The notes beneath the pieces were generated by a model, which was given only the letters and a program-made list of their open reading frames with translations, was not told the DNA's origin and made no database searches. The position numbers and the translations under genes are program-made. This document shows positions 11,314-64,000 of a DNA stretch of 64,000 bases, in pieces; the first letter of the stretch is position 1; every line of letters begins with the position of its first letter. The DNA is from Phyllosticta citribraziliensis (Eukaryota), in NCBI RefSeq assembly GCF_038025025.1, contig NW_027117346.1, positions 1,116,001 through 1,180,000 of the forward strand. Reading direction: 5' to 3'.

Positions 11314-13214
11314 TCTCGGCGGCGACGCGGTTGCGATCTTGGGCGTGGACGAGTCGAGTAGTTGATCTTATCCCCTTTTGCGTTCATGGTTTCTCTCGAC
11401 GGCACCCCCGGCCGTTGTCTTTCACTCTCCACGTTAGCCTCTAGACGGGCACAGATTCTGTCTCCTTCGTTCTCATCTTTCTCGACACGACATGAATGGG
11501 GCATGGTCACGGCGTTGACGGCGTTTTAGCGCAATGGGCGGCATGGTGGCGGTAGCATCGTCATCATGATCATCATTTTCACTGTGAGCGCCTACCGGTC
11601 CACAGACATTTACATTGGACGGGACAGGGCAGATCAGGACCGAACAGAACGGGCGGCAGCACTGAGACTACGGCATGGCGGATTCTTCGTGATACCTATC
11701 TGTTCACCAGACGGCTGGGTCGGATGGTCATTTCTTTCTCCCAAGTCTTTTTTCATCGCTTGGATGTTTCCTCTCTCTCTTTTGCTCAATCTTTTGGCCT
11801 GTCTGCGGCATGTTTTCAATGCGCACGACGGAAGGCCCCGGGCATGCCTGGAATAGCACAGGTGGATAGACGGGATGGACACGGTCAGTGACGGTCGGAC
11901 TGAGGAACTGTGTGTGTGGCGTGGCCAAACGTACTGGCTATGGGCGTACATGCGCACGCACGGCTGAACGGCCGAGATGGAATATACCACAGTGATGAAC
12001 GTCAAAAAGAATTGAGAAGTCATTCACTACCACGGTGACGCTTAAGGAGCAGTCATCCATCGCCACAGATACTCGTAAGGAGCCGCCCGTGGTCTGTCAA
12101 TGCAGCCAAAGCCGTCGTCATCGTGCAAGTCCGTCCGTCCCGGCTAGCAAGGCACATATCAACAATTCTCCCCCTTAGTCTCCTCCCCGGATGACCATAT
12201 ATACCGCTGAAGCAACACAAATTATCGGGTGGATAGGAGCACCAAGGATGCCCACATTCATTCTTGGTGCTCCTGTCCACTCACTCAATCTTTTTGCCAA
12301 TTTCCTTTAATAAGCTAACCGCAGCGTGGAGCTTTTCCCCAAGCGATAGCAGGCGGCACCCGCATTGGGAAGTGCGCGCGGCGTGTGTTCGAGTCCGCGG
12401 GTGCGCTGTGTGTGCTTTTTTTTTGGGGTGTGTCGTTCGTGATGTATGTGTGTGTGTGTTTTTGCCGAGGGCTGGACGTGTGGGCGTGAGTGGTGGTAAA
12501 TGTGATCTGGTGGGCTGAGGTTGGGTGTGGGTAAGTAAGGGAAGTCAGAGGTCAAGTCAAATTCTGCGTCAACATCTGCGGCTCTCATTCTATCTATATT
12601 CTTCTGATTACCTGGATCTAGGCTGTGTGTCTCGACGCGTCTTCTCACCGCTGCGGCCATCAAGGCGAGTGGGAGGAGCATTCGTGCGTGGAAATGAGGT
12701 TTTAAATTAGAGTGAGCGATGGTGGTGCTCTTCAAAACTTGCTTGACCTGGTCCTTTCAGGACAGTCAGTTCGCACGCGCTTGAGCTATCAGGACATATC
12801 TTTCTCACTGGTCGTCCAGTCCTCCATGCTAGATGTAGAGTAGAGATGGAATTGCCGCAAACAAGGAGACAAAGAGAAAGACACAACGCAGGGGTTGAAA
12901 GCGAGGCAAACGGACAAGGTCGTGCGCTCAGAACAAAGAGCAGGGAGTCCCTTTGTCAGTGCTCTCTGTCAACGCCGGATTCGACCATCTTCATGCTCTC
13001 GCTGGAGGCTATGTCCTCATCATTCACTTGAGCCTCAGTGTTCAGCAGCTCTTTCTAACAAAGCACAAGGAGGGAGACGACTGTCTTTGTTGGACTTTCG
13101 TTTTCATATGTCCGCCCGACGATACATTCACTTGGTCCACAAGGCATTCTCATCCTCGCACTGCTCAAACTTTCGCATTTCTCAAGAAGATTCACCCACC
13201 GACACATCGACGCC

Positions 13215-51605: not shown

Positions 51606-52672
51606 ATGTGTATCGCCATTGTGACGACCGCACATCCAGACTACCCCTTTATCCTCTTAAACAACCGCGACGTACGCCCACTTGCGCTCCTCTCCTGCCC
51701 CTCGACTCCCGTTCTGACTGATTGCAGGAGTACCTTCGCCGCCCCACCGCTCCGGCCCAGTGGTGGGCGCCTCCACATGACCACGTTCTTGGTGGCTACG
51801 ACCTGCACCGCCCCGCCCACGGCACCTGGTTGGGAATCACCCGCCAGGGCCGTCTGGCCGTCCTGACCAACTTCCGTGAGGAGGGCGTTGTCATTTGTGA
51901 GGAAAAGAGCCGCGGCGCCATTCCCAATGCGTGGTTGAAGCTGCCACCCACCTCGACCGAGACGACGGCCGACTTTGGCCAGCGGCTGGTCGAGGAAGAG
52001 CAGGTCAAGGGCGTCGGTGGCTTCAGTCTACTGTATGGTCGTCTCCAAGACGTTGTTCAAAAGCGTCACGACGACGGTCATGCCAATGGCGCAAATAGCA
52101 GCGGTTCAAAGCACCGCAAAGGTCTCGCCATCCTCTCCAACCGCACGCCCGACGTCCACGGCTTGATTTGGGTCGCCGGCGAGCCGGGCGAGACTCACGC
52201 CCTCAGCAACTCGCATTACGGCGACAACTCGTGGCCCAAGATTGTCCGCGGCAAGGAAGCCACCAAAGCCGCCGTCGAAGCCAGTGTGGCTGCGGGCGAG
52301 ACGCGCGACCAGCTGCTCGAGCGCCTCTTTGGCGTGCTCAGTCAAGACAGCTTGCCCAAACACCGGTCCGGCGAAGCTTGGGAGATTTATCTGCGCCAAC
52401 TGCGCAACAGCATCTTCATCCCAGACATTGGCCGCGAGGGCGACGGTGTCGTGACCAAGCCGACGGAGGATATGTCCTTTGCAAAGAACGGAGATGAGAC
52501 TGCGACGACCGCGGCCAGCGGTATCTACGGCACCCAGCGGCAGTCGCTAGTGGTGGTTGACCGCGACGGCAACGTCACGTTTGTCGAGAGATCTTTGTTC
52601 GATGCACAGGGCAGGCCCGTTGAGAGGGGCAAGGGGGACCACAAATTTGAATTCCAAATTGAGGGATGGTGA
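51606..52672 (+). CDS. TANGO2/NRDE (DUF833) family protein
   Basis: MCI start, NRD|E motif formed across intron 51672-51727, GTWLGITRQGRLAVLTN, SRG, LSN..WPK, YGTQ. Confidence 0.9.
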
Positions 52673-53467
52673 TGCTGGCATTTTGGAGTTGAGGAGTGCT
52701 TCATTGTCAAAGATACCTCCTGGAGCGTTCAGTACAGCACAGCACAGCAGGCGCATGAATGCACGGTTGAATTGCCCTTTGGCTGAGTCGGTGCCCAACT
52801 GGATCTTGGTATTCTCGGTTGTCTTGTGTACATGTAGAATGGCCCGCCCCGTCCAAAGTGGTACAGAACAGACGTGCAGTGCAGTATGCATGCCGGCAGC
52901 CGGCAGCGGGCATACTGACACTGCATCAGCATACTCTTCTTACCGCCACACTCTTCTCAGACAATGTACAAAGCTCTTGCCAACTCTCCACTTTGACAAA
53001 TGGTCTTTTCTGCCGGTGATGTTGGGCCCTCGACGAATTTGAGACTATTAAACAACAGCAGCATTGAGTAAAGCATGCTTACGTATCTCTTGCCCCTGTC
53101 TCCTCTTATCTCAAAGGATACCCACAGCGGCCCCAGCACGTAGCCGAGTTGCCTTCTCCTGATTTGCGTGGATGTACGTGGAATCCTTTGCTTACGCTTC
53201 ACCGCTGCTCCGTATGATGCTTCCTACGCGGCGCCAGTTAGCCAGCCAGCCAGGTGCTGATAGACTGTCATGACTCCATCTATTCATTCACCTGCATGCA
53301 CGTGTCCTCTATCCAGCATGTGCAGCCGTAAAAGCTTCGCCTGGAGATCCGCTGACAAAATGCTCGTAATCACGTACCATCACCAAACGCTGCATGCGCC
53401 TCTCCGCAACCAAGTCCCGCCGAACCGTCGATAAAACGCAAAAACGCCGCCTCCCCTCCAACAACAA

Positions 53468-53625
53468 GCGGGAGTGGCCTAGTGGTTAAGGCGCTGCTTT
53501 CCCATCATTTGGTTTCGCCTCTAAGCGAAAGAGACAAGCAGAAACCGCGAGGTAAGTGCCCGCCTTCCGCATGGGGATGAATGTCGGCTAACGGGCGCTC
53601 TACAGTTCGAATCTTGCCTTCCGCA
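53468..53625 (+). tRNA. tRNA-Gly(CCC) gene with two intervening sequences: a canonical 37/38 intron (53505-53535) and a spliceosomal-type GT-AG insert at 53/54 (53552-53605)
   Basis: Acceptor GCGGGAG/CTTCCGC + A73; D stem GCCT/AGGC with loop AGTGGTTA; anticodon stem CTGCT/AGCAG with CCC at 53501-53503; T stem GCGAG/CTTGC with loop TTCGAAT. The three exons sum to 37+16+20 = 73 nt. G1-C72, C2-G71, G3-C70 and A73 fit eukaryotic tRNA-Gly. Confidence 0.88.
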
Positions 53626-53629
53626 CATC

Positions 53630-53635
53630 TTTTTT
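53630..53635 (+). terminator. RNA polymerase III terminator (T6) of the tRNA gene
   Basis: TTTTTT begins 5 nt after the discriminator base, followed by a second T5 run. Confidence 0.8.
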
Positions 53636-54125
53636 GGCTTTTTGACGGCTGGAAAAGTGACTGGGGAGAGGGGGCTCGTTCAAGGTGTTTCTTCTGTCCG
53701 GATTATCATTTTGGTCTTTGAGATAGCGGAGGGTTTAGAAGCTGCAACCGAGTGAGCCACAACGGGAGTAGAGAAGAAGCCTACAGGTGGGAAACTAGAA
53801 CAACTGCTTCTTTTCGTTGTCTCGTAGAGGAGCTCATCACCAGGAGAGGGAATATTTGGTAGTCTTCGGAGGCAGTCCATTTGGTTTTTTGGGACGCCGT
53901 TTGATCCAATGGCGATGACGGACGGGGTTTTTCTTCGTCTTCCTCCTCCTCTAATGCAGTATATCTGTTAAGACCCCTTTTGAGTTTCGCGGCCCAGGTA
54001 GAAAGCTCTTCACACCCCATCCAGCAGCCCCCGCCTCTTCTCAGGTTTTCATGCCGTGGCATCCATGGAGCCCAAAAGAAATGGAGTAGCAACGTCCCTC
54101 TCACACCACACCCTCTCTTAATCCT

Positions 54126-54785
54126 CTACTCCCTCTGCAACACAACCGTCAAGCCCATCAAGCCCAGCATGACCGTCTTCAACCACGGGTACTCGCTAAG
54201 CAGGATCGTCACGTATCCGACCCACGGGATGAAGCCAAATACGCTGCCAATGACGTCCTTTTCGCGGTTCAAAAACGACTGGCCGCGCGCGTACAGCTCC
54301 GTGTCGTCGGCGACGTTGTTGTCGCCCTTGGTCAACAGGCGCAGAGGGTTGGGTCTAGGTACGTCAGTTCATGGTTCTTCAGCCAGCCGACTCCAATCCA
54401 CCACTGTTTCTCCCCCTCCATTCTCCTCTCCGTCTTTGCAGCGACCCAAGAAAAGAAGGAAAGCAGGCCCAACTCACCCTCCTCCAAACCTCCTCACGAC
54501 GCGATGCACAATCGGAATGTCCTTGCCGCGCACGTTGTACACGACGACCTCGCCAATCCGCGTGTCCATGGCCCGATTCCACAGGAACAGCAGGTCGCCG
54601 CGCTGGAACGCCGGCTCCATGCTGCCCGACAGCACCACGACGATCGGCGACGGCGAGTTGGTGGCCACCGACAGCCCCTTCCACAGCATGAACGCCGTGC
54701 TGAGCACCAGAGCGAAGTTGAGGATCTGCGCCGCGATCTGCCGCGACTGCAGCCCCGCGAGCGGTCCGAGCAGGTCGTTGAGCAT
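54126..54785 (-). CDS. SEC11: Signal peptidase complex catalytic subunit
   Basis: [40 protein letters not shown]. Intron 54477-54355. Confidence 0.95.
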
Positions 54786-55403
54786 CGTATCGTGGGCCTG
54801 GTTGCCGTGGTTTGCTTTCGTGTCGTCGCCGAGGGCGGTACGCGCGCGTTCGTTGCGATGGAAGAGGCGACTAGTCGGGCAGAGATGCGTGGGCCAAAAC
54901 TTGGCGAGTGGATTTACGGAGCTGCTCGGTGGGCAGGTGTGTTGGTCGATTGGTGTGTCTTGTGTGTTCGGCCGGCGCGGCCGTCAACGCTGTGGAATTG
55001 ATGAAGCCAGGTGTTGACAAGGGTAGCTCGGTACAGAGGTAGGTGCGCAGGGCAGCGCCGCCGCGGCGGAGATCCCCGCCAAGAGTTACTATGCCTTTAA
55101 ATACTCGCGGCGTCAAGAAGCCATTTGCAAAGACTGTTGACCTTGAACAGTGTCAATTGGTGCTAAATTCACTTTTGAATTTCTCAACGCTCTACAGTAC
55201 AGTCCACTGCTCCAGTTTCCGTGTTTGACGTCCTTCCCTTAAAGAGGCCCTCATGATCGATGCAAAGGTATCTTTTGCCCCTTCCTCGTCCAATATCTAA
55301 CCACCCACCGCAAAAATTAAAGCCCTAGGGCGCCAGGCTTTCCTTGCTTCGTTTCGAGGCCAAGTAAAAGACATTCGCCAGGCGTAGACAGAACCAAAAA
55401 TCA

Positions 55404-57840: not shown

Positions 57841-58141
57841 GGCTGTCGGGCAGAATGGTGTGTTTGAGCGTTGCTATAGCGGCAGCATCAATTATCGACG
57901 GAGCTGTTTAGACGAGATGGAGGGAGAAGACGAGAGACGTCCAGGCGCATTGCTGTTGAAGGTCGCAGCGCAGCTCCGCCGTCCTGACCTGGAGCCCCCA
58001 GCCCGGCAGGGCGTGCACGGGCCGCAACGCCGACGCGGGAGCTGCGCATCATCCCTCCGGCCCAGATCCACCTCACTCTACACGTTCACCGCGGCACCCA
58101 ACCCCACATCCAGCCCTCGGTTTGGATCGTGGGCGCGCACA

Positions 58142-61100
58142 ATGGCAAGTTCTTCCCTCTCAAGTCGCTTTTCCAGCTTCAACTGACGCGTAACGCGACG
58201 CAGTCGGCCTTCAAAGCGCTCAATATTGAATCTGACGTCGAGTCTGATGATGAAATCGACAACACCAAGGAAATCCAGATTGAGGAAGCTCTGAAGCTCT
58301 ACCAGACGGCGCTCAAATACCACTCGGAGGGACCTCGTTCTTTCAGTCAAGCTGCGGAAGCCTACAAGGCCCTATTTGAATCCGAAATCTTCAACTACAC
58401 CGAATCATTGTCCGAATTCCGCCGCAGCGCTCTCCATGGCGACCCCGACTTCGACTTGCTCTTTCAAGAAGACTTCGATGCCGGTCCAGTGCAGGCAGCA
58501 GGCGGCGCAGACTCGGCTCCCAATACACTGCCCCAGATCCTGCACCTCTCATACAAAAATCACGGACAATTCTTGTTGGAAGCGCTTCATCATGAGCTGG
58601 GAACCTCTCAGCTATCGTCCTCATCAGACGCTCCGTTGCAACTCTTCGCCGAGGCTCTGGATAAAGATGATACGGATCTAGACCTGTGGTCGCGGGCTGC
58701 CTCAGTGGCCGCATTGGCAGGCAGTAGCAGGATCACAAGGTTTTGCCTTGAGGCCGTTCTCGAAGGCGACGACGAGGGCCTGGACAGCATTATGAGGCTT
58801 CCTGGACTAGAAGAAGGATTTGCGGGCCAACAACTTCGAGAATTAGTGGAAAAATTAAAAGATGAACTGTCTCTCGCGCTGGCGCCACTTTCCGATTTGC
58901 GACGGAAGCGACTTTCAGCTGCAATAAAGAAGCGTCTGGCCCCTCTTACTTTTGCTCCACTCCCGGCCGAAGTGCAATTGCGCAAAAAGCTACAAGACGC
59001 GTTTGACAGCCCACCTTTTCAAGTCACCTTGACCCCAATATCAGCCACCTGGGCTCACGTCGGCGATGCCATATTGACCGAATACATTCAAGGGCTCCAA
59101 CAGCAAACAGAAACAGGACCTGGTGCATTAGTGGCACTCCAGCTTTCAGCCCACGAGTCTGTCCCCGTCAACCGCCCTGGAGGCAAGCCAGAAGCGAAGC
59201 AGGATTTTCAAGATGGCGACGGTCAAGACACGAAAGAGCAACTCCAAACAATAGCGGCCGCAAATGGGGACAGTGAGATGAAAGATGCCGGGGACGACAC
59301 ACGGACTTCAAAACCCGCAGCGGCAACAAACGGCCATGGCGCAGCGATCGATCAATCAGAGAGGCCAGGTGGTCCTTCCAGGAAGCGCTCAACTGAGTCT
59401 GCCGGCCTGGCTGAGACAGCTGACAGTGGTCGCGTCAGGAGCAAGAGGATACGGGCACGTGAATCCGTTGGGGATAGCGTGCTCGGCACCGTCCCTGACA
59501 CATCTCACCAGTTCTATGAGTCGGATATTACTCAGTACGAGCAGGCAGATGACTGGCTCTTTGAGATCACTGGCGAGATTCTTGCAAAGTTAGGCATCAA
59601 TAGCCTGGGCTCCCCCAGAAAGCTGCGAGATGTGCTTCGGAGTCAAGGCGAATTCGAAGAGTCTCGAAACGCCAGGTTGGACATTGCCGCGAAGGATCTT
59701 TATTCGGTCCTCCAAAACTGCACACCGCAAGCAGCAGCCATCCTTACAAGCGGAGATTCAATTGACTTGCTGGGTGGCGCTTCACGCGAAGCAGGCCTAA
59801 ACGCGTTCCTTGGCTATACCAAGTCCCCGGGCGCGAATTCCTCGACCGGACCCCTTCTCGTTGATGAAGGATTGCTGGCTTGGTCGCAAGGTATCGAGAC
59901 TGGTCGTCCAGCCAAGGAACTGCTATGGTCATGGTTGCAGGCTATGATGAGATCTGATGGCATGTCGACAAATAGATACCAGACGGACCAAAGGTCCAGC
60001 TATTTGCGTCACCAGTGGTCCGAGGATCTGAAAAGAATCGTCGTCCAAGCGATTGTCAACGCCGATGATCTTATCTACCAAAGGCTCTCAGAGGAAACTG
60101 CAAGGCTGGATTCGAGACTTCTACAAGCCCAGGCCTCGAAAAAAGGTATTGAACTTGACGAGCAGGAAACGTCTATGATTGAAATGGTTCAATCGGTTTT
60201 TGAATTGCACCTCGATGTGTACTCCTTGATCAGACATCCAACGTCGAGCGTGGACATTTCGACCCAGACTTTGCAGCGAGAACGACTTGAAAGGTGGGTC
60301 TTGCTTGCCCGCGACGCCATTGCCTACCGTTCAAGCTGCAAGAAAACTTCAAGCATTGACGAGTTGGATTTCCGACATCTCTGGTCTTCCATTTTCCATC
60401 TCAGCGTCTCCGAAGACACGTCTCAGGATTACATCGTTGCATGCATCGAGGAGTTGAAGACCATTGCCGGCCTTCTTGATATTCCAGTGGTACATTTGCA
60501 AAACAACGCAATCATGCCCGAGCTTTCAGTCGACGCGGCCCAGCGTGAATTGACCAAGATTAACATGAAGGACGCATTCATGAAAGTCTTCCAGCAAGAC
60601 GAAAATGATCCGGTCACTGTCATTGAAAGCCTGGAGCCGATATTGGAATCATCGTGTCAAGGAGACTCTCAGCAAAATAATCGACATTCTGGCAGATTGG
60701 AAGTCGCAGACAGCCAAGACGACTTTGATAACTCCTCGCAACAATCTGATCTGGGTGACAAGAACGAGCAGACGGCAGCCCAAGTCAGGCCTGGTCCTTT
60801 GCAGGCCATGATCCAATTCGTCTCCAACGCCAACGTATCGTTGCGTCTTTCATTGTGGCAACGTCTTCGGCAGGCATACGATGCAATCGACTATCCTCCA
60901 AAAGTTGTTTCGTGCTACTTGCGTAGTGTCGAGATACTCGTCGAGGACGTGAAGAGCGCGGCTTACACCGAAGATGCTCCAGAGCAGAGGTCAGCTGAGC
61001 TGCTTAAATGGCTTCGCATCATCGACGAGATTTTTGTCAAAATCCTCAAAAATTTTGGGTTGGAAAACATGTTCGAGTGCATTGACGAGGCTCACATGCG

Positions 61101-64000
61101 TTCGTCTTTGAACGCCATAGGCGAATTGCTCTGGCTTCTCAACACGACTAACGTCTACGAGGACCTGGTCCGAGTCGGTCAGCTCAGTCAACCCACGTTG
61201 GAAGGCCGACCTAGCCCTGTGCATCATACAGTTCTGGCCAAGCTCCACGAGATTCAGCTTCGTGGCTGGATGGTTCAGTGGCTTCTCCTAGGCGACGCAA
61301 TGGAGTCCAACCCAGAGTTGTTTCCGAATCCGAATGAGGACAAGTTTGAGTATCTTCGCCACCTGCACCATGCCTCTGGTGTTCGAGGATTCTGCGCTGC
61401 TTCAAACAAGCTTCTTCTCAGGGTCACGAAAGATCAGCTTTTGCGCTGGTTCAAAGACGGTGAAATCGCGGATGTTGATACGCGAGACACGGTGCTCTGC
61501 CAGGTCCTCTACGACTTATACAACTTGTTTTGCTTCACAAAACCAGCAGACAAGGCTGACCATCCCAGCGAATATGATCCGATGGATCAGAAAGCTGCTC
61601 TAAAGCTGCTCGATTTTGTCATGTACCAGACGCGTAAAGTAAGCCTCAAAGACTTGCACAAGACGCAACTTGGTGCTTCAATCGACGTGGTACATGGCCA
61701 TCTTGCCCGAACCAAGCCAGCAGGGGCCGACGATCTTGCGTTCAACAGGTTGAAGTACATGTCGTTCATCAAGTCGCCCATCAGAGATACCGACCTATAC
61801 CGCTGCGCAAGGGGCGTCGGGGCACTATCGACAAAGCCAATAGCCTCCAAAAACGCTCGGATCGCATCAAAAGGATGGTACTTTCTCATGGGCAGCCTTG
61901 CGCTGAACCGTTTCAGGTCCCAGAATCAGAAGCGACAGGCTCCCGTTCCCACAGAAGATCTCAACATTGCTTCGGCGTTCTTTGTCCAAGACCTAGAGTA
62001 TGATTCTGAGCGCTGGGAGACTTGGTACTTGCAAGCGCTCTCATACGACTACCAAATCGATGAGATGGTGGCGTGGTCGGCTGAGAAAGTCAACAGAAAT
62101 GACCCTGATTTAATACAACACCAGAGGGCAGCGATACATTGCTACGCAATGGCAGTGGCCACGGCTATCCGACACGCGGACTCTTCCGACAGAACCCAAG
62201 ACAAATTGGCGCAACTCTATGCCGACTATGGCATGAGAATGTATGCATCTACGAGGGATCCGTTTGCAATGCAGGTGTTCGCTTTCAAGGAAGCCGAGAC
62301 CAGGTTCTTCAGCAAGCATCAGGTTTTGAGGGAGGCCCCATTCAAGCCCATGTCCGAATATTCGGCCTGGAATTTCGCTGCTGGACTGTTCCAAAGGGCA
62401 ATCAATCGCAGGCCCGACTACTGGCTCAATTACTACATGCTGGGCAAGTGTCGTTGGAAAATTCAACACAGGGTCTATCATTCCCACCTCCAGGTCGCGA
62501 CTGAAGCTACTCTGAATGCGTTCAAACGAGCTATAGAGGAGCTTCCAGAAAAGAGGGGGTCAAGGGATGCAATCCTCGAGCCACATTACAAGCTGCTATC
62601 GGTGCTCCACAAAATGGTCCACGCGAAAGACGGACATATGAGGTCGCCATACCACGCCATGGTAGATCTTCAGATCACGCCCTACGCGAGACAGGTCCCC
62701 ATGCCTCTTTCCAAACATAGTCATATTATGGAGGGTGATCACGAGGCATGGGACGACTACTGTCTCAAGGTGTTGAAGGTCATTCGGCAGGCCGACAAGT
62801 CCAACTGGCATCACAGAATGACCGCAAGGGCTGCCCAGATCCAGTATGGCGATCCACGACCAGAAGAAGCCTTCATGTCGGCCCTCGCCGCCAAGACTGA
62901 GCTCACACAGCAAATATTCACCAAAACAATGCAGCTACAAGTATGGAAGCCAGAGTACGAGCGTTTGGGTCGTCATTTTGTCTACACCACACGCTATACG
63001 ACATTCTTCATCGAGCTGCTAGCTCAGACAAATGACAGAGCAGGAATGGAGGCACTGGCCAAGAGAGTGAGACGACGAAATCACGAATTCTACCAGCACG
63101 CAAGACTTTGGCAGTCTCTGTGCCAAACCTATCTCAAGGTAAGTGTCTACCCCCAAAGGCAGACCTCTTTTGTTTCTAACATTGCTCGTAGATGCTTCGA
63201 AAAGCTGCAAAGATTCCCGAAGGCCATGAGGATGCTGTCTTCAAGGCCATTAATCACGAAGAATGGCTCTTCTGGGCCGGCAAACTCGAAGTGTGGTGTC
63301 GAACGCAGGGACACACGTCGCCTGTCTATGAGGTCCTCACAGAAGCCATCGAGCTTCGGCGCTTGAACAATAACCTCATGAAGGCAACGCTGATTGACGA
63401 CCTCATTGGCGACACCTACGCACTGCTGTACCAACAGGTCGTGCCGGAACTGATGGCCGAATCTGGTCCTGCTCCCACATCTGAAACAACGCAGCCTCAA
63501 ACTGGTGCTCTGGCAGCTCCTGAGCGGACCAACATGATGTCCATGCACAACATTATGAACATGGACGGAACTTCGGATCCTCAGGGACAAAACCCAGCAT
63601 TCCATGTCTTGAACCTGCAGTCCTCGGCACAGCCGCAGCCAACACCAGCGGAACCCCCCACGACAACAGCCGGTCCCAAGACCCGGGTTAAGGGTGTCGG
63701 GCGTCGAGAGCTCATGCGCAAAGCTGATGCCGCCGTCACCCGTCCAGCCGCTGCTGCTTCCACAACAACCATTCCCATACGCGCAACGCCGACACCAAAG
63801 TCGGTGCCGCCCGCAGCTGATGCCACTGCCGGTGCAGCTGAGGATCGGGAAAAGGTTAAGGAGGAGCCAGAAGCAGAAGGCGAAGCAGAGGTAGAGGGCG
63901 AGGCAGAGGCCGAAGCCGAAGGCCAGGACGAGCAGCAAGAAGCCGCGCAGGAGACGGCAGAAGAGGGGACGCAGGAGGAGACGGAGACGGGGACCGGCGC
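58142..64000 (+). CDS. HIR3: Histone transcription regulator 3 (HIR complex; Cabin1-like), 3'-truncated by the window
   Basis: M|SAFKALNIE..DNTKEIQIEEALKLYQ, LYKNHG-like SYKNHGQF, ILEPHYKL, DKSNWHHRM, QVWKPEYER.GRHFVYT. Introns 58145-58203 (GC-AG) and 63139-63191. The frame is still open at the window end. Confidence 0.9.

Follow-up and report, generated by a model that had tools for sequence, protein, structure and literature searches.

Known intron classes and the interrupted tRNA-Gly(CCC) gene

Spliceosomal introns and the introns of transfer RNA (tRNA) genes are treated as unrelated classes tied to different transcripts in textbooks as well as in recent accounts (PMC12530127, 2025; PMC10275265). 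The tRNA splicing endonuclease (SEN) is described as cutting at position 37/38 by a ruler mechanism, or at a bulge-helix-bulge (BHB) motif (PMC4090602). Spliceosomal introns are also reported from non-coding RNA genes of fungi, including U6, which is transcribed by RNA polymerase III (Pol III), the U1, U2 and U5 small nuclear RNA (snRNA) genes and ribosomal RNA (rRNA) genes (PMC5855946). Here we describe a tRNA-Gly(CCC) gene in a 64-kb stretch of Phyllosticta citribraziliensis contig NW_027117346.1 (the window hereafter; all coordinates are window positions), in which the T-arm is interrupted by a 54-nt insert carrying mRNA-type splice signals. On balance, we favor reading the locus as a functional nuclear tRNA-Gly(CCC) gene, the T-arm of which would be restored by the spliceosome before the tRNA pathway removes a second, ordinary intron at 37/38.

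With regard to intron type, this locus resembles the spliced snRNA and rRNA genes, such as Schizosaccharomyces pombe U6, Rhodotorula hasegawae U1, U2 and U5 and ascomycete rRNA, in which a GT-AG intron with a branch consensus likewise lies within a structured non-coding RNA gene (PMC5855946). U6 shares the additional features of being a Pol III transcript and of having a B box that is described as interacting with its intron (PMC5855946). However, a tRNA does not lie near the spliceosome active site, so the reverse-splicing rationale for U6 is not applicable here. The tRNA-Gly(CCC) gene also differs from U6 and the other spliced non-coding genes in having a SEN-type intron as well, and its splicing is a prediction.

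With regard to intron position, the locus resembles the tRNA genes of Cyanidioschyzon merolae and of cryptophyte and chlorarachniophyte nucleomorphs, for which introns in the D-arm, the anticodon arm and the T-arm are described, so that a T-arm can be interrupted in addition to a 37/38 intron (PMC4090602). Those introns are BHB-like or 3–24 nt long and lack GT, branch and AG signals, whereas the tRNA-Gly(CCC) insert has no BHB, carries spliceosomal signals and resides in a fungal host. The 31-nt intron at 53505–53535 is comparable, by position, to the canonical 37/38 introns removed by SEN and Trl1, while the 54-nt insert, at 53/54, lies outside the reach of the ruler as described (PMC4090602). 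A search of the full-text literature retrieved no tRNA with a spliceosomal intron, in line with the original prediction, which knew of no described case; most subscription journals lay outside the coverage, and the result is no proof of absence.

Organization of the tRNA-Gly(CCC) gene

Direct reading of 53300–53800 bore out the predicted anatomy of the locus base for base. The gene occupies 53468–53625 on the + strand, from G1 (53468) to the discriminator A73 (53625). Exon 1 (53468–53504, positions 1–37) contains the 5' strand of the acceptor stem, the D-arm, the 5' strand of the anticodon stem, the anticodon CCC and A37, after which the 31-nt canonical intron (53505–53535) is located at 37/38, the position expected for SEN. 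Exon 2 (53536–53551, positions 38–53) contains the 3' strand of the anticodon stem, the variable loop and the 5' strand of the T-stem, GCGAG. The 54-nt GT-AG insert (53552–53605) is located between G53 (53551) and T54 (53606). Exon 3 (53606–53625, positions 54–73) contains the T-loop TTCGAAT, the 3' strand of the T-stem, CTTGC, the 3' strand of the acceptor stem and A73.

Both internal promoter elements were identified on the + strand. The A box (TGGCCTAGTGG, 53475–53485) lies inside exon 1, and the B box (AGTTCGAATCT, 53604–53614) spans the 3' end of the insert, the terminal AG of which replaces A52-G53 in the DNA; both match the consensus. The two boxes are 118 nt apart. T runs inside the 158-nt gene are at most 3 nt long, with none of 4 nt or more, and a T6 run resembling a Pol III terminator (53630–53635) is located 4 nt past A73 and is followed by a T5 run at 53640–53644. 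The locus therefore has the A box, the B box, the T-run terminator and the short internal T runs (<4) of a functional Pol III type 2 tRNA gene.

No tRNA was found by ARAGORN in the native 64-kb window, either by default or with introns allowed. After in silico removal of 53552–53605, ARAGORN called a tRNA-Gly(ccc) with an i(38,31) intron and a clean cloverleaf, in agreement with the predicted outcome of exact GT-AG excision, namely a normal T-arm, a 73-nt cloverleaf and a 31-nt intron after A37. The spliced product of 73 nt has stems of 7, 4, 5 and 5 bp, with the acceptor stem GCGGGAG/CTTCCGC, the T-stem GCGAG/CTTGC, the T-loop TTCGAAT and the anticodon loop TTCCCAA. A canonical cloverleaf with its anticodon is obtained only after this removal and not from the native DNA.

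Splice signals of the insert

The insert begins with the 5' splice-site consensus GTAAGT (53552–53557), preceded by AG in the exon. It contains the branch-site consensus CTAAC (53588–53592), with the branch A at 53591, 39 nt from the 5' splice site and 14 nt from the insert end. It ends with the 3' splice site CAG (53603–53605), which holds the first AG after the branch A, no AG being present between 53591 and 53604. All three signals were read directly on the + strand, and the excision point can shift by one G with the same product. These features are those of a U2-type GT-AG intron, with GTAAGT, a CTRAY branch site at a suitable distance, the first YAG and a length in range.

Based on the k-mer frequencies of the window itself, the probability that all three signals occur by chance in a given 54-mer is approximately 1.3e-8. 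Strict GTAAGT..CTAAC..YAG strings occur three times on the + strand, the insert included, and not at all on the − strand (128 kb over both strands). As an excision control, 16,200 GTNNGN..AG segments of 30–160 nt were removed across the whole window on both strands, and ARAGORN was run on each product. Three of the 16,200 removals gave a tRNA call, all at the tRNA-Gly(CCC) locus, and the exact one alone gave a canonical tRNA; the two other calls show a 95-nt product, a mismatched T-stem and three acceptor G-U pairs. The insert is an intron-like sequence, far beyond chance.

The insert was also compared with introns of the neighboring protein genes. The heuristic intron list contains many false positives in GC-rich DNA, and only the well-flanked short introns were used for this comparison. 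These are 50, 50, 54, 59 and 60 nt long, against 54 nt for the insert. Across the intron candidates of the window, the branch A lies 8 to 34 nt from the 3' end (14 nt in the insert), and the GTAAGT hexamer is present in two other strict intron-like strings. Where they could be checked, Pfam domains back the exons on either side: in a Ras-family gene, the Pfam coordinates run on across a 107-nt intron (model positions 1–70, then 72–127) and verify it, and RING, hexokinase and Na/Ca-exchanger domains stop at exon ends adjoining short introns. The original prediction had described the insert as having the same signals and size as the protein-gene introns of the window. Introns of 50–60 nt do exist there, but CTGAC, rather than the CTAAC of the insert, is the branch motif seen most often in the window, and GC content and structure differ. 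The insert thus matches local introns in size and geometry and is atypical in GC content and structure.

Conservation in related sequences

A total of 16 datasets matched the locus, none of them recorded as RNA, and contigs of four were compared at ≥80% likeness. In X2 (organism A), a 3372-nt contig is identical over 301 of 301 bases and possibly comes from the same source as the window. The X5 contig (organism B) covers 53400–53641, and its sole difference within the gene is 53570 C>G. The X10 contig (organism D) covers 53494–53643 and has 53570 C>G and an additional T after 53518. X9 (organism C) is represented by one 158-nt contig across 53476–53629. Its first intron differs by 53506 C>T, 53508 T>C, 53519 C>T, 53522 T>G and a 5-nt insertion, CCAAA, after 53522, and its insert differs by the loss of one base at 53559, 53569 G>C, 53570 C>A and 53593 G>A, the last being the base next to CTAAC.

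The insert is found at the same place in X5, X9 and X10, which come from three studies, and also in X2, and no contig joins the exons across it. Since it is common to at least four organism labels, the insert appears not to be recent. In organism C, no change is seen in 65 exon bases, compared with 8 substitutions and 2 indels in 85 intron bases. All 12 in-gene events in X5, X9 and X10 affect one or the other intron, and the exons have none. Exon 1 is identical in X2, X5 and X9 where covered, and exons 2 and 3 are unchanged in X5, X9 and X10. The probability of such exon sparing by chance is 0.004 for the 10 events of X9, 0.009 in a Fisher test on substitutions and approximately 0.001 with the X5 and X10 events included. 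Nor is any change seen in the 43 exon bases that belong to neither the A box nor the B box (P ~0.017). The flanks of X9 differ by 7–15%. Because the upstream flank carries 5–10 substitutions per 68 nt in X9, the intron interiors would seem to drift at a roughly neutral rate, with the exons apparently frozen. This pattern is that of purifying selection on the exons, detected with modest power among close relatives.

GTAAGT, CTAAC and CAG are unchanged in X5, X9 and X10, and neither decayed stems nor lost splice signals, which the original prediction had named as evidence against it, were seen at these orthologous loci. Its proposed check in relatives, a conserved GT, branch and AG with a diverging interior, gave the expected picture, but the relatives are too close for it to reveal selection. 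Because the relatives are close and the events in the insert few, the unchanged GT, branch and AG are uninformative in this respect.

A pattern without splice signals, in which 10 bases from exon 2 and 13 from exon 3 were separated by a gap of 40–70, retrieved no true wider relative from metagenome, genome and viral contigs. Its matches, in one metagenome contig, one Poribacteria metagenome-assembled genome and no viral contig, lack a tRNA body and were rejected as chance.

The similarity of X5 to the window stops abruptly behind 53641, 6 nt past the T6 run, and the loose end of 30 letters opens with a short palindrome, the strands of which resemble the T-stem and an acceptor motif. In X9, two versions of each flank are present over window positions 53400–53671, with depths of ~127 and ~79, which suggest two haplotypes or two close relatives. 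The X9 unitig with the CCC anticodon and the first intron base has a summed depth of ~202, and one version of the intron region alone was compared. This summed depth hints at one tRNA-Gly(CCC) locus per haplotype in X9.

Structure, decoy and origin of the insert

The insert contains a hairpin (53555–53599, + strand) with an 8-bp stem, in which 53555–53562 pair with 53592–53599, joining the tail of the 5' splice site to the bases just past the branch site. In the minimum free energy (MFE) fold of the precursor, the acceptor, D and T stems are retained and the insert forms a side hairpin.

The insert also contains a feature that the original prediction had missed. An exact 10-nt copy of 53616–53625, comprising the end of the T-stem, the 3' strand of the acceptor and the discriminator, is located at 53562–53571 (+), 54 nt upstream and in register, the offset being equal to the insert length. 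This copy acts as a decoy in the Rfam search. The Rfam tRNA model matches 53468–53571 with 38.6 bits (gathering score 29) and places a false 3' end inside the insert, on the decoy. The earlier expectation that tRNA finders would probably miss the gene or call it a pseudogene was correct with regard to ARAGORN, but Infernal with Rfam does call the locus, with a wrong 3' end. Pipelines based on Rfam will probably report a low-scoring or pseudo tRNA-Gly at 53468–53571.

The short tRNA ending at 53571 was considered as a real gene and rejected. Its T-loop is non-canonical, it is not followed by a terminator, and three relatives carry changes that break its acceptor pairs. The changes 53570 C>G in X5 and X10, and 53569 G>C with 53570 C>A in X9, hit the decoy at the would-be partners of G1 and C2. 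When the variants were rebuilt and folded, the short-form cloverleaf was lost, and the insert hairpin was kept in a weaker form. Because the decoy is broken and this cloverleaf is lost in the relatives, the short tRNA is not likely to be the functional product.

Of 2000 shuffles of the region, 1 gave a repeat as long as the decoy at offset 54, and 42 gave one when every offset was allowed. In register, the insert is identical to the next 54 nt at 22 of 54 positions, compared with 12 of 54 for the previous 54 nt. The in-register copy of the acceptor strand leads us to suggest, at low to moderate confidence, an origin of the insert by local duplication of the 3' part of the gene. This origin is only loosely held because the rest of the insert, beyond 10–13 alike bases, is at chance level in its similarity to the 3' part.

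A model in which introns are gained when an exon segment is duplicated in tandem was reportedly proposed by Rogers in 1989 and developed in later work. The tRNA-Gly(CCC) insert resembles such cases in having an in-register copy at an offset of 54, equal to its own length. It differs in that 10–13 of 54 bases are alike here, the original junction is AG|TT rather than AG|GT, and the copy matches 8–9 of 10 bases in the relatives. No further copies of the insert beyond chance 8–10-mers were found in the 64-kb window.

A degenerate look-alike of the T-arm and the acceptor 3' strand is present at 53674–53699 (+), ~50 nt 3' of the gene. Approximately 15 of its 26 bases match by eye, many of the differences are transitions, and ARAGORN uses it in two poor alternatives. 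It could be a third, decayed copy of the 3' end of the gene, or chance.

Proposed maturation pathway

The sequence features of the insert were compared with the known routes of removal. A BHB could not be drawn at the insert boundaries in either register, with only 1 of 4 central-helix pairs formed, and the insert, at 53/54, does not have the position expected for SEN. The MFE fold buries the 5' cut in a helix and leaves the 3' cut in a single-stranded stretch of 11 nt. The BHB/SEN route was therefore rejected for the insert. An Ire1-type site, with the consensus CNG|NNGN in a 7-nt loop, fits neither junction by eye. The spliceosome appears to be the only known machinery that matches the insert sequence.

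We infer Pol III transcription, spliceosomal excision and the following order of steps. Pol III would transcribe the gene via the A box in exon 1 and the B box, which is intact in the DNA across the 3' end of the insert, and would stop at the T6 run. In the folded precursor, the acceptor, D and T stems would be in place and the 54-nt insert would protrude as a hairpin of its own. The spliceosome would then read AG|GUAAGU, CUAAC and CAG, the insert would leave as a lariat, and the joining of G53 to U54 would create the T-loop and the tRNA elbow. The elbow would thus be rebuilt in the nucleus, and the end-processing enzymes RNase P and RNase Z, the exportin and SEN, which measures from the mature body, would act only after removal of the insert. 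SEN and the tRNA ligase would then take out the 31-nt intron at 37/38.

The original prediction, that this tRNA would need both machineries to mature, is partly supported by the sequence features described above. In its fullest form, this proposal would make tRNA-Gly(CCC) the first nuclear tRNA to need two unrelated splicing machineries, with a duplication-born spliceosomal intron splitting the T-arm of a Pol III transcript and the sole tRNA-Gly(CCC) of these fungi being dependent on pre-mRNA splicing capacity and possibly regulated by it; we put forward this combination tentatively, as somewhat short of probable.

A number of observations weigh against a spliced, functional gene. The prior is low because no tRNA with a spliceosomal intron was found in the literature searched. 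The GC content of the insert is 0.61, compared with 0.42–0.56 in the short introns of the window, and its predicted fold of −22.9 kcal/mol (z −2.5) is stronger than those of six short introns (−5 to −14 kcal/mol). Its hairpin pairs positions +4 to +11 of the 5' splice site, and an extended T-stem pairs G+1 and U+2; in this model, the hairpin and the T-stem extension could hinder U1 binding. The relatives are close, with flanks diverged by ~4–15%, and the 14 signal bases would be missed by the 4–5 insert changes by chance with P 0.22–0.30. Exon 3 alone (20 nt) is not significantly conserved, and TFIIIC binding, or gene conversion by other copies of tRNA-Gly, could also account for the exon conservation.

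Alternative explanations

The main rival is a young pseudogene, in which an intron-like sequence (a reverse-spliced intron, an introner-like element or a local duplication) entered the T-arm of a dead or dying tRNA gene, the transcript stays unspliced and GGG is read by another tRNA-Gly. T-arm insertions in eukaryotic tRNA genes are described as usually taken for pseudogenes (PMC4090602), which also counts against the functional reading. Any insertion removed at its own boundaries restores the gene, so restoration alone proves nothing, and among such close relatives a young pseudogene could still appear intact. However, neither decay nor missing conservation is seen at the locus. No invariant tRNA feature is lost, both promoter boxes and the terminator are intact, the insert is found under at least four organism labels and is not recent, and a pseudogene fits poorly with the frozen exons of organism C (0/65, compared with 8 substitutions and 2 indels over 85 intron bases, P 0.004). 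We regard this explanation as unlikely, though it deserves serious consideration. If instead the insert were never removed, the locus could be a TFIIIC-bound boundary between convergent genes, or encode a tRNA-like RNA, whether one whose T-arm hairpin is extended or the short form that stops at 53571. Such an explanation could draw on the Rfam score of the short form (38.6 bits), on the MFE fold, in which the insert is a side hairpin and the acceptor, D and T stems persist, and on the fact that the A and B boxes alone could account for part of the exon conservation. It is made improbable by the 43 unchanged exon bases outside the boxes (P 0.017), by the short-form pairs G1-C72 and C2-G71 that are broken in X5, X10 and X9 with loss of the cloverleaf in folds, and by a short-form T-loop without canonical bases and without a terminator behind it.

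Other explanations accept removal of the insert but by a different path. The spliceosome normally works on transcripts of RNA polymerase II (Pol II), and it might act here on a Pol II precursor, either read-through from the TANGO2 gene, which lies 800 nt upstream on the same strand, or a non-coding RNA of its own, from which RNase P and RNase Z would free the tRNA; the A-B spacing of 118 nt is also longer than usual. Against this stand the perfect A and B boxes, the A-rich leader, the T6 run 4 nt past the discriminator and the lack of an internal T4 in 158 nt, and U6 shows that Pol III transcripts can be spliced. The chance of a Pol II precursor thus seems small. About as small, or slightly smaller, is that of removal by proteins alone, with SEN or another endonuclease cutting both boundaries and Trl1 joining the ends. 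T-arm introns are described as being removed without the spliceosome in C. merolae and Guillardia nucleomorphs, and eukaryotic SEN as able to cut BHB substrates (PMC4090602). The insert, however, has no BHB (1/4 central-helix pairs, with the 5' cut helical and the 3' cut in a single-stranded stretch of 11 nt), and this route would leave the perfect GTAAGT, CTAAC and CAG (P ~1e-8) unexplained. An assembly artefact of a metagenome contig is the least credible explanation of all and can be given hardly any weight. The best-matching dataset, X1, is a surface metagenome and possibly the source of the window, and the X2 contig, identical over 301 bases, possibly has the same source; but X5, X9 and X10, which stem from different studies and carry different organism labels, have contigs that span the insert with private differences.

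Genomic context and other features of the window

The tRNA-Gly(CCC) gene is located between two convergent protein genes, and the TANGO2 and SEC11 flanks named in the original prediction were both confirmed. Upstream, the last long exon of a TANGO2-family gene (Pfam PF05742, E 1e-55) occupies 51722–52672 on the + strand. Downstream, a SEC11 signal-peptidase gene occupies 54129–54983 on the − strand and shows similarity to human SEC11C (E 7.6e-33). The SEC11 exons gave no Pfam match at E 0.001, and their identity was established via PDB sequences instead. The SEC11 gene contains a 123-nt intron (54355–54477) with GTGAGT..CTGAC..TAG. Gene content, together with short introns that have CTRAY branch motifs, points to a fungus as the host.

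Two other B-box-like sites, at 12387 (+) and 40907 (−), were examined in the same way, and 0 of 275 and 0 of 184 GT..AG removals, respectively, gave a tRNA. Around the former, a near-perfect hairpin of ~25 bp is present at 12222–12296 (+), after TATATA at ~12199, and is followed by AAGCTAACCGCAG, which is branch- and acceptor-like. The GC-rich segment 12340–12424 (+) contains the B-box-like GTTCGAGTCC, a CGCGG/CCGCG stem, an 8-nt complement pair and a T9 run at its end. An Rfam scan of 11900–12480 gave sub-threshold matches to miRNA-like hairpins alone, the best with 28.9 bits against a gathering score of 64. Judging from these sequence features, 12222–12424 (+) may be a novel Pol III or small RNA gene.

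At 57988–63998 (+), a frame runs for 1717 codons without a stop; behind it lie a strict GTAAGT..CTAAC..TAG intron of 53 nt at 63139 and a further open frame. No Pfam match at E 0.001 was found for the last 713 residues before this intron or for the 269 residues after it.

Implications for tRNA biology

Because ARAGORN misses the gene and Rfam/Infernal misplaces its 3' end, genomes in this group would appear either to be without tRNA-Gly(CCC) or to have a pseudogene. An insertion-tolerant search of tRNA sets could reveal further cases. If the T-arm insert is indeed spliced, it would cross the line between the spliceosomal and tRNA intron classes, and tRNA would join U6, U1, U2, U5 and rRNA among the non-coding RNAs that have gained mRNA-type introns. 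The spliceosome would then work on a pre-tRNA, and an order would be imposed on tRNA maturation.

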